In this document: in pieces, positions 14,602 through 15,144 of the stretch
Numbering within the stretch: position 1 is the stretch's first letter
Layout of the letters: the number at the start of each line of letters is the position of its first letter
From: Escherichia phage WPEC2
Strand: one strand, 5' to 3'
Sequence record: PV691511.1
Length of the DNA: 64,000 nt
Position numbers and translations under genes: made by a program
The notes under the pieces: generated by a model
The model's input: only the letters and a program-made list of their open reading frames with translations
What the model was told of the DNA's origin: nothing
The model's database searches: none

Positions 14602-15144
14602 TTATTTTGTGTTGACCTTATTTCGCATTAACCTGTGGGATACAGAGTTGCGAGATCTGTTTAGAACCTTACCAATCCCTGCATGACTATACCCTTCACT
14701 ATTTAACTTTTCAAGAATCTGGTCTTCTTCCTCTGTCCAGTAGCGGCGTTTAGCTTGTCTATCATCCACACCATACATGATAGGTTGCTTTACATCCATC
14801 ACTTTTAGCAATCTGACAGCCTCTTCCGCTTTCTCTTTTTTGAAACGGAGATAAGGGATTAAATTCTCAAGCAATCTTATCACACTTTCTCTGCTGCTAA
14901 CATTGATATTATACATCAAATTATCATATTTTTCAGCCCAAGCTACGCGCGATGTGAAAGAGACAGTATATCCATAACTTTCCAACTCTTTAGCCAAATC
15001 GGTCATTTCTTCTGCCGATCTCTCGTGTTGTGTAAGGTTTACTGTGTAGGAGTCTGAAGTCTCCCTGTTTCTGCTTATAATAGACCCATCACAATCTATG
15101 CAACCTGCGTAGTAAGCATAAAACAGTTGTTCTTTTATGTCCAC
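14602..15144 (-). CDS. free-standing LAGLIDADG-type homing endonuclease with C-terminal helix-turn-helix
   Basis: Single LAGLIDADG-like motif YAYYAGCIDCDGSI near N-terminus; C-terminal GYSHAGIGKVLNRSRNSVSHRL resembles an HTH. Confidence 0.5.
   Translation of the reverse strand: MDIKEQLFYAYYAGCIDCDGSIISRNRETSDSYTVNLTQHERSAEEMTDLAKELESYGYTVSFTSRVAWAEKYDNLMYNINVSSRESVIRLLENLIPYLRFKKEKAEEAVRLLKVMDVKQPIMYGVDDRQAKRRYWTEEEDQILEKLNSEGYSHAGIGKVLNRSRNSVSHRLMRNKVNTK

Follow-up and report, generated by a model that had tools for sequence, protein, structure and literature searches.

A putative free-standing LAGLIDADG–HTH homing endonuclease gene in the place of a DUF4326 gene in Escherichia phage WPEC2

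Single-motif LAGLIDADG homing endonucleases are exemplified by I-CreI, I-MsoI, and I-CvuI, the homodimeric enzymes of group I introns in the chloroplast 23S rDNA of green algae. Members of this class act as homodimers on a (pseudo)palindromic site of ~22 bp and leave 4-nt 3′ overhangs. The free-standing endonucleases SegF, SegG, and MobE of phage T4 bring about “intronless homing” or localized marker exclusion, and were reportedly described by Belle et al. in 2002, Liu et al. in 2003, and Wilson and Edgell in 2009. In fungal mitochondria, free-standing endonuclease genes insert toward the 3′ side of another gene and supply it with a new 3′ end, such that the old end persists as a downstream remnant; the atp6 gene of Allomyces, reported by Paquin et al. 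in 1994, is said to be an example. Here we describe an open reading frame (ORF) on the minus strand of a 64,000-nt stretch of DNA from Escherichia phage WPEC2 (record PV691511.1), which is called the window below. We consider it likely that this ORF is a free-standing homing endonuclease gene whose product joins a LAGLIDADG core to a helix-turn-helix (HTH) domain, and that its family targets genes encoding DUF4326 proteins.

A preliminary description of the window, made from the letters without database searches, had drawn attention to this ORF, to a LAGLIDADG-like motif, YAYYAGCIDCDGSI, and to a probable C-terminal HTH. The extent that it gave for the ORF proved exact, and both protein features are borne out by the analyses below. 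The ORF and the parts of its predicted product are as follows.

14602–15144, minus strand: putative homing endonuclease ORF of 180 amino acids (aa), with a GTG start at 15142–15144 and a TAA stop at 14602–14604.
14788–15138, minus strand: predicted LAGLIDADG catalytic and dimerization core, aa 3–119, from AlphaFold, Foldseek, and a profile comparison with the PDB.
15079–15120, minus strand: LAGLIDADG motif YAYYAGCIDCDGSI, aa 9–22, placed by alignments to I-CreI-type enzymes.
15088–15090, minus strand: predicted catalytic Asp, D19, equivalent by alignment to D20 of I-CreI.
14839–14841, minus strand: K102, in the motif PYLRFKKEKA, equivalent by alignment to the active-site K98 of I-CreI.
14734–14787, minus strand: flexible linker, aa 120–137, with no secondary structure and a predicted local distance difference test score (pLDDT) of ~64.
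14623–14733, minus strand: C-terminal three-helix HTH, aa 138–174, resembling the GcrA DNA-binding domain, Myb, and HTH_38 (Pfam, PHROG, AlphaFold, and Foldseek).

Profile, model, and structure searches agree on the LAGLIDADG assignment. The single sequence matches Pfam LAGLIDADG_3 over aa 10–94 at a sub-threshold level (E 7.8e-4; 20.1 bits, compared with a gathering cut-off of 22.5), and single-sequence phmmer against the PDB returns weak matches to I-MsoI, I-CreI, and I-CvuI. When a profile of 11 homologs is used, the same enzymes are reached at E 1.9e-12 for I-MsoI, 1.5e-7 for I-CvuI, and 2e-5 for I-CreI. The AlphaFold model (pLDDT 88; predicted template modeling score 0.79) contains an alpha-beta-beta-alpha-beta-beta-alpha core with an extra alpha-helix, wherein helices span residues 3–18, 41–56, 85–98, and 103–119 and strands span residues 20–26, 31–40, 61–69, and 74–82. 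The first 45 Foldseek matches in the PDB are all I-CvuI, I-CreI, or I-MsoI (probability 1.00; best E 1.7e-7), on which the core superimposes with a root-mean-square deviation (rmsd) of 2.3–2.7 Å over ~117 columns. The segment YAGCIDCDG of the window protein aligns with LAGFVDGDG of I-CreI.

The C-terminal part of the model consists of the low-confidence linker and three helices at residues 138–174. PHROG 323, a “transcriptional regulator” family, matches aa 130–178 at E 8.6e-9, and the Pfam families HTH_38 (E 2.4e-4) and Myb (E 1.6e-3) match aa 132–175, both sub-threshold. For the isolated domain, Foldseek ranks the GcrA DNA-binding domain first (5yiu; probability 0.99; rmsd 1.7 Å over 45 columns; 36% identity), with an E-value of 0.31 that is not significant for a domain this small. 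The HTHs of Tc3 transposase, Pax paired-domain, and Myb proteins follow, with E-values that are likewise not significant.

Conservation was assessed with 56 full-length family representatives at 50% identity. The core residues A13, G14, D17, D19, G20, Q39, R66, and K102 are conserved in 86–95% of them (D19 in 89%, G20 in 95%, K102 in 93%, and Q39 within 89–93%), and the HTH residues W136, E140, I157, L161, and R163 in 91–100%. Together, the model and these alignments indicate that the gene encodes an I-CreI-type single-motif LAGLIDADG core with a GcrA/Myb-like HTH. Because single-motif enzymes like I-CreI act as homodimers via the LAGLIDADG helix, where A13 and G14 are conserved, the window protein should by analogy do the same. 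The HTH probably adds DNA contacts beyond the core site.

The window belongs to Phapecoctavirus (phAPEC8-like; Stephanstirmvirinae). Over the 4 kb surrounding the gene, the window is 100% identical to Escherichia phages WPEC4 and WPEC6 and 94–99% identical to many Phapecoctavirus genomes, and this neighborhood is matched by 72 records. In these relatives, the endonuclease segment is one of two alternatives at a single site.

14602–15145: segment of 544 bp that is allelic to a 352-bp segment carrying a DUF4326 gene; the junctions are identical in all genomes examined.

The 352-bp alternative carries a 122-aa gene of the DUF4326 family (PF14216; E 1.1e-21), and this allele is present at ≥95% identity at this very place in 47 records. 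It is 89% identical in the sister genus Justusliebigvirus, where the slot was confirmed in phage VEcB. DUF4326 DNA matches (60–80%) also occur in phages of Klebsiella, Cronobacter, Pectobacterium, and Erwinia, as matches only, for which the genomic position is not established. Given this presence across Phapecoctavirus and Justusliebigvirus along with the matches elsewhere, the DUF4326 gene represents the older state of the site. The domain is described as rhodanese-phosphatase-like and has been proposed to process phosphates of ADP-ribose derivatives in virus–host conflicts (PMC9503650).

The swap is precise, with junctions that are base-for-base identical across 17 aligned genomes. On the coding strand, the 5′ junction falls at the third base of the DUF4326 start codon, where GGTTAATAT followed by G is changed to GGTTAATAT followed by T and then GTG. 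The 3′ junction is located 12 nt ahead of the DUF4326 stop codon, where the next gene’s ribosome-binding site, GAGGAG, directly follows. The endonuclease gene reuses the translation-start region of the gene it displaced, and both neighbors are left whole. No DUF4326 sequence is present anywhere in the 64-kb window. The preliminary description had viewed the gene as an insertion among unrelated genes. Its mobility is upheld, but insertion into an empty intergenic site is ruled out, because the seemingly “empty” relatives hold the 352-bp DUF4326 segment exactly there.

The distribution of the gene is patchy. Relatives of the endonuclease were found by tblastn in only 32 phage records, and the gene itself was found by blastn at ≥99.8% identity in 13 records, corresponding to ~11 phages. 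At this locus, ~11 Phapecoctavirus genomes have the gene, 4 have decayed copies, and 47 close records lack it. The gene, besides encoding a LAGLIDADG fold, is thus not a fixed core gene of its relatives. It is 100% identical in WPEC4, WPEC6, Schickermooser, KKP 3954, and 536P1, and the source countries, where records state one, include Thailand, Germany, South Africa, and Denmark. Among carriers, the left flanks are ~96% identical, and the right flank is 84–99% identical and falls into two haplotypes ~15% apart, each of which occurs with the endonuclease and with DUF4326. For example, WPEC4 and Schickermooser share a 100% identical gene, whereas their right flanks are merely ~85% identical. 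As judged from these comparisons, the gene is less diverged than its background, which indicates recent spread across divergent backgrounds and agrees with the initial view of a selfish, free-standing mobile gene.

Decay is also evident within the genus. Phage ukendt carries a +1 frameshift in the homopolymer encoding K102/K103, near 14836, and three other phages retain a single remnant.

14602–14707, minus strand: 3′ stump of 106 bp, the sole remainder of the gene in phages nepoznato, DIJ07P2, and AV126.

In these three phages, 14708–15148 is deleted between short TTAAC repeats, and neither gene is left. The three allelic states would fit the expected series of target allele, invasion, decay, and loss. 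A single flanking marker is linked to the endonuclease allele: at 14 nt from the left junction, an A-run is longer by 1 nt in 8 of the 10 alleles with the endonuclease or its stump, but in none of the 7 with DUF4326. A more distant comparison is provided by a sister lineage, represented by the loci L021 to L023 of our set, that carries the gene at the same locus. Relative to L022 (77% aa identity), the proportions of nonsynonymous and synonymous differences (pN 0.152 and pS 0.786) are near those of the neighboring genes, which indicates purifying selection on the encoded protein and, as read from these sequences, a gene kept functional between the two lineages.

The link to DUF4326 recurs in 9 of 11 contexts, including Stephanstirmvirinae, Vequintavirinae, Straboviridae, and unclassified contigs with unrelated flanking genes. 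The homolog in the Certrevirus (Vequintavirinae) phages PcCB7V, DU_PP_I, and DU_PP_IV is 41% identical to the window protein and takes up, gene for gene, the position that a DUF4326 gene has in KaOmega (gp44) and in CR3 (CR3_043, “similar to NrdA.1”). Its flanking genes have no evident similarity to the Phapecoctavirus neighbors. A third exchange involves RB43 ORF066w (Pseudotevenvirus; T4-like Straboviridae), which is 37% identical to the window protein and is located between nrdB and denA. In Citrobacter phage Miller, this slot holds a 103-aa DUF4326 gene (E 1.8e-17) that is replaced by ORF066w in RB43, and the two genomes are 99.9% identical through nrdB and 89% identical past the swap. Four states of the slot are seen: the LAGLIDADG–HTH gene in RB43, RB16, and KP27; DUF4326 in Miller and probably CfP1; an HNH-AP2 endonuclease in GAP161 and leE; and a ~150-bp gap without an annotated gene in IME-CF2.

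nrdB–denA slot: 1443–1925 in L029, 1377–1526 in L028, and 1348–1659 in L027.

In five metagenomic lineages, the homologs adjoin a DUF4326 gene or its leftover 3′ end. P0005/P0004 (L030 and L034), P0003 (L033), P0006 (L036), and P0010 (L059) each immediately follow a DUF4326 gene. Locus L036 is syntenic with the window locus and keeps both genes, in the order 120-aa gene, DUF4326, endonuclease, and 124-aa gene, with a UvrD-type helicase gene farther on. In L030 and L037, whose endonucleases are 52% and 36% identical to the window protein, a leftover of a DUF4326 3′ end begins right after the endonuclease stop codon. It reads F-C-A-P-A-A-C-H-G-D-V in L030 and Y-C-A-P-L-P-C-H-G-D-V in L037, and both leftovers begin at DUF4326 codon 81/82, in the C-F/Y-C motif. 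The endonuclease-linked DUF4326 alleles of L030, L033, and L034 have a 12-nt insertion directly after the C-x-C motif (CFC-KQEGKDVP-CHGD, compared with CFC-SPQP-CHGD). As a negative control, no DUF4326 was found in 70.6 kb from 19 loci of distant LAGLIDADG relatives that lack the HTH (2 from IMG/VR and 17 from JGI metagenomes); the context survey could not be widened by these loci, which were used for this purpose only. A free-standing homing endonuclease family aimed at DUF4326 genes appears to be the best reading of these comparisons.

The two alleles share the same flanks, so a target in the flanks would cause a carrier to cut its own genome. We reasoned that the target should therefore lie in DUF4326-specific DNA. 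A target in the flanking genes is indeed unlikely, given that 60 nt on either side are the same in both alleles and that no flanking single-nucleotide polymorphism tracks the endonuclease. From the leftovers and the variant alleles, the target most likely corresponds to the DNA encoding C-x-C-x-P-x-P-C-H-G-D, which is the most conserved motif of DUF4326 and is presumably catalytic. The best pseudo-palindrome in the DUF4326 allele, AGGTTAATATGAAGGTATTAAACT, matches in 8 of 10 pairs and extends across the 5′ junction. This is about chance level in 435 AT-rich bases and the sequence is unconserved in Certrevirus, and we consider it a weak alternative to the C-x-C region.

A homing cycle at this locus could proceed as follows. 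During co-infection with another Phapecoctavirus, the enzyme would cut the DUF4326 gene of that phage, and the cut ends would be resected into the conserved neighbor genes (14230–14589 and 15149–15511), which would serve as homology arms. Such homing would need resection, to each side of the cut, through 110–240 bp of DNA without homology. Repair would then copy the endonuclease allele and replace the DUF4326 gene of the recipient, and carriers would be immune because no DUF4326 sequence is left. Transcription would be shared with the leftward cluster around the gene, and translation would rely on the displaced gene’s start region. In a presumed early form, the element would enter at the cut site with a recoded 3′ end, such that DUF4326 stays intact and its old 3′ end becomes a remnant, and the variant motif would shield the carrier from its own enzyme. 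Later, in Phapecoctavirus, Certrevirus, and RB43-like phages, DUF4326 would have been lost outright, which would confer full immunity.

It is tempting to view the family as a natural “knock-out gene drive” against DUF4326, in which the early form keeps the gene working (L030, L033, and L034), three phage groups have eliminated it, and the drive is opposed by selection for DUF4326 on some hosts. We offer this only tentatively and think it more doubtful than not. If it were true, homing would delete DUF4326 from every converted genome, and a balance would keep both alleles circulating across Stephanstirmvirinae, Vequintavirinae, and Straboviridae.

Several observations weigh against a homing endonuclease that targets DUF4326. 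We infer cleavage, the target position, and homing itself for the whole family, and the single-sequence Pfam matches are all under their gathering thresholds. Contexts L032 and L058 lack a DUF4326 signal. The position of the target derives from two leftovers and from variant alleles of other lineages, not from the Phapecoctavirus allele, and at codon 81 of that allele we saw no convincing pseudo-palindrome. The DUF4326 alleles that adjoin the endonuclease in L036 and L059 are without the insertion, which leaves their escape from self-cleavage unexplained. Besides the 1-nt poly(A) difference, no flanking marker tracks the endonuclease allele, and the frameshift in ukendt, occurring in a homopolymer, could be a sequencing error. 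Finally, the gene of L021 to L023 has diverged like its flanks (77% aa identity, compared with 66–74% aa for the flanks), which indicates long residence at this locus and fits a vertical history as well as repeated homing, without proving the latter.

Some of these observations are also relevant to other explanations for the gene. It might encode a domesticated, non-cutting LAGLIDADG–HTH DNA-binding protein, for example a WhiA-like regulator that is kept for the benefit of the phage. WhiA shares the architecture of a LAGLIDADG fold with a C-terminal HTH (PMC3240954, PMC3384342), and the HTH described here resembles those of the transcription-factor domains GcrA and Myb. Moreover, the gene lies within an operon without a promoter of its own, is under purifying selection, and co-diverges with its flanks in the sister lineage. 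However, domestication of the WhiA type involves two domains and the loss of acidic residues, whereas the window protein has a single domain, and ~90% of the 56 representatives keep D19, Q39, and K102. The gene is also dispensable, patchy, and decaying inside one genus, and its allelism or adjacency to DUF4326 in unrelated contexts, along with leftovers that begin at a fixed codon, has the appearance of a trace left by a mobile nuclease. We therefore regard a regulatory role as quite improbable.

That the gene is a recently immobilized relic, meaning a homing-endonuclease descendant that is inactive or without cuttable targets and hitch-hikes until it decays, is unlikely for other reasons. At least five phages, isolated independently in different countries, carry the ORF intact and with the same sequence, the two flank haplotypes ~15% apart imply recent spread rather than old residence, the catalytic residues are intact, and most of the genus still has susceptible DUF4326 alleles, so targets remain. 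These facts have to be set against a GTG start with a mere AGG(T) Shine–Dalgarno-like element, decayed copies in four sister phages that reveal tolerance of loss, and Phapecoctavirus copies so near identity that selection within the genus is unmeasurable. Least convincing is ordinary mosaic exchange, wherein the endonuclease-like gene and DUF4326 would be alternative cassettes shuffled by general homologous recombination with no nuclease-driven conversion. Phage accessory regions are mosaic, an upstream gene at 15508–15870 also exists in two divergent haplotypes unrelated to the endonuclease, and the nrdB–denA slot of RB43-like phages has several alternative occupants. Nevertheless, chance fails to explain why, in 9 of 11 contexts, one endonuclease family is an allele or a neighbor of genes from one Pfam family, why two DUF4326 3′ leftovers begin at the same codon directly past the endonuclease stop, and why the control loci lack such a link. 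We consider this explanation very improbable and favor a free-standing homing endonuclease.

Gene context is consistent with a stand-alone gene. The ORF is a member of PHROG 16747 (E 7e-46), and the full 543-bp coding sequence is annotated in seven sister genomes. Its GTG start is supported by an ATG at the aligned position in the sister lineage L021 to L023, as seen in L022, and by distant homologs that align from residue 1 of the window protein in tblastn. The surrounding features are listed here.

15149–15511, minus strand: upstream neighbor gene of 120 aa and no known family, intact despite the swap.
14230–14589, minus strand: downstream neighbor gene of 119 aa and no known family, with a GAGGAG ribosome-binding site directly after the endonuclease stop.
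15145–15155, minus strand: translation-start region from the displaced gene, comprising a Shine–Dalgarno-like AGGT at 15152–15155, the TAA of the upstream gene at 15149–15151, and then TATT.

The ATG of the displaced DUF4326 gene is now ATT, with the GTG start of the endonuclease directly after it, and in phage ESCO13 the annotated ribosome-binding site of the DUF4326 gene is at this same position. The gene sits among densely packed small genes that point leftward, in a cluster upstream of a gene for a UvrD-type helicase. The spacers measure 4 nt from the upstream-gene stop to the endonuclease and 12 nt from the endonuclease to the downstream start codon, and no Rfam family was detected within 3 kb of the gene at E up to 1. 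This leaves no room for an intron and indicates a stand-alone gene. The 180-aa protein has no Pfam match to Hint or Intein_splicing domains.

There is no convincing sigma-70-like promoter directly upstream of the endonuclease gene, and the nearest strong promoter-like site is at 16958–16929, at the head of the gene cluster. No RNA structure that masks the start codon, as in some T4 endonuclease genes, was found (z = 0.59). A foreign base composition is weakly indicated at best, with a G + C content of 0.394 for the gene and 0.391 for the window; G + C at third codon positions alone is somewhat above that of the neighboring genes. The second upstream gene, at 15508–15870 (120 aa, with a signal-peptide-like N terminus), exists in two haplotypes that are ~15–20% apart at the DNA level, extend on to ~16170, and assort independently of the endonuclease and DUF4326 alleles.

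Annotation of both alleles is uneven. The GenBank record of WPEC4 (L002, 2603–3007) includes only the last 134 codons of the endonuclease gene, from Met47, such that the motif is cut off and ~140 bp are unannotated. The DUF4326 gene (L001, 2587–2955, and many RefSeq phage records) is misnamed “ribonucleotide reductase NrdA-like” or “ribonucleoside-diphosphate reductase 1 alpha subunit,” when in fact it encodes a PF14216 protein of 103–122 aa and not a reductase. This misnomer seems to stem from T4 nrdA.1 and PHROG 24867. NCBIfam has no model for either the endonuclease gene or the DUF4326 gene. In the 161-kb record of WPEC1 (L004, 200–3482), 100% identity with the window extends from 17945 down to 14663 and then breaks within the HTH-coding part, creating a 219-aa fusion ORF, and pieces of the gene match at 3–4 places in the record. 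The break stems either from faulty assembly of the record or from a rearrangement at the endonuclease gene. The distant family member P0008 (L058, 693–1184) adjoins a YpsA/SLOG-family gene on a short contig that ends before the upstream region; SLOG domains are reported to be fused to DUF4326 in some viruses (PMC9503650).

The preliminary description had also counted two inteins, which we could not confirm: no Pfam intein, Hint, or LAGLIDADG signal was detected in any of the 20 window ORFs of ≥250 aa, to which the scan was confined. The ORFs scanned include those for NrdD, a UvrD-type helicase, TerL, the portal protein, DNA polymerase A, a primase-helicase, and tail proteins. Mobile-element traffic around the endonuclease locus is real in relatives. 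The related metagenomic phage L023 (1489–2508 and 5436–8075) has an 879-aa UvrD-type helicase with an intein (Hint and Intein_splicing matches) and a 339-aa T5orf172/DUF723 gene inserted among small genes.

Collinearity of the window with phAPEC8 stops at 17945. From 17945 to 18857, the early-gene cluster of the window is joined within ~900 bp to the large-terminase gene, whereas in phAPEC8 that point is followed by ~12 kb of small genes in rightward orientation and by the genome end. This difference probably reflects another genome permutation or an assembly difference. Approximately 1 kb of the window (10322–11307), in a 448-aa ORF (9953–11299) with no Pfam match, has no megablast match to phAPEC8, with sides that are 93–96% identical.

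These findings suggest a function for PHROG 16747, which is “hypothetical” or of “unknown function” in almost every record, and they correct both the truncated annotation of the source genome and the recurrent NrdA-like misnomer of the displaced gene. Three allelic states (target gene, endonuclease, and decayed endonuclease) coexist in one genus, which makes for a clean natural system, and ancestral-looking intermediates exist in metagenomes. The inferred target, the DUF4326 active-site motif, recurs across three phage families. Isolated, sequenced coliphages could be used to test the life cycle of a free-standing endonuclease gene, as well as the possibility that such an element drives the loss of a putative counter-defense gene. 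A compact I-CreI-like enzyme with a tethered HTH could also be of some interest as a meganuclease scaffold.

Among characterized enzymes, I-CreI, I-MsoI, and I-CvuI are the best matches, with one motif per chain, the same core, and a catalytic Asp and K98-equivalent Lys as in the window protein. Sequence identity is 15–22%, however, and the window gene is not intron-encoded. Where I-CreI has C-terminal helices and a loop, the window protein has a linker and a separate HTH. The I-CreI group targets rDNA, whereas the enzyme described here has a bacteriophage host and a presumed target in a protein-coding accessory gene. WhiA (DUF199) similarly combines a LAGLIDADG fold with a tethered C-terminal HTH (PMC3240954, PMC3384342), but it is a conserved chromosomal gene with two LAGLIDADG domains per chain and lost catalytic residues. 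In contrast, the window gene is patchy and decaying, with a single domain that keeps these residues.

Like SegF, SegG, and MobE of T4, the window gene is free-standing among phage genes and patchy in close relatives, and for both we would expect that a genome lacking the endonuclease gene is cut in a mixed infection and receives that gene along with nearby sequence. The nrdB region that harbors the RB43 homolog is a classic hot spot for free-standing endonuclease genes of the T4 type. The T4 enzymes belong to the GIY-YIG or HNH families rather than LAGLIDADG, and they adjoin a retained, resistant copy of the target gene, whereas in the window the presumed target gene is gone and the endonuclease is in its place. 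A closer parallel to the L030 and L037 arrangement is offered by the fungal mitochondrial genes, with a variant 3′ end, the endonuclease, and the old 3′ end from a fixed codon. The present cases differ in that they occur in phages, and the window itself is past that stage, having lost the whole DUF4326 gene.

RB43 ORF066w and other members of PHROG 16747 belong to the window protein’s own family, with the same two-domain architecture at 37–41% identity and at other loci. A 2006 study included ORF066w among putative mobile elements and gave a weak Pfam match to LAGLIDADG for it (E 0.15; PMC1524935), and the GenBank record of PcCB7V names the homolog “intron-encoded endonuclease i-crei.” PHROG 16747 is annotated as “unknown function,” and nearly all records read “hypothetical protein.” The paper on Certrevirus CB7 lists LAGLIDADG enzymes only inside inteins (PMC7344957), and our literature search yielded no report of free-standing LAGLIDADG genes in phages or of an association with DUF4326. 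Thus, the type of element is known and fairly ordinary, and what is new is the family-wide link to DUF4326 and a three-state polymorphism in isolated coliphages.

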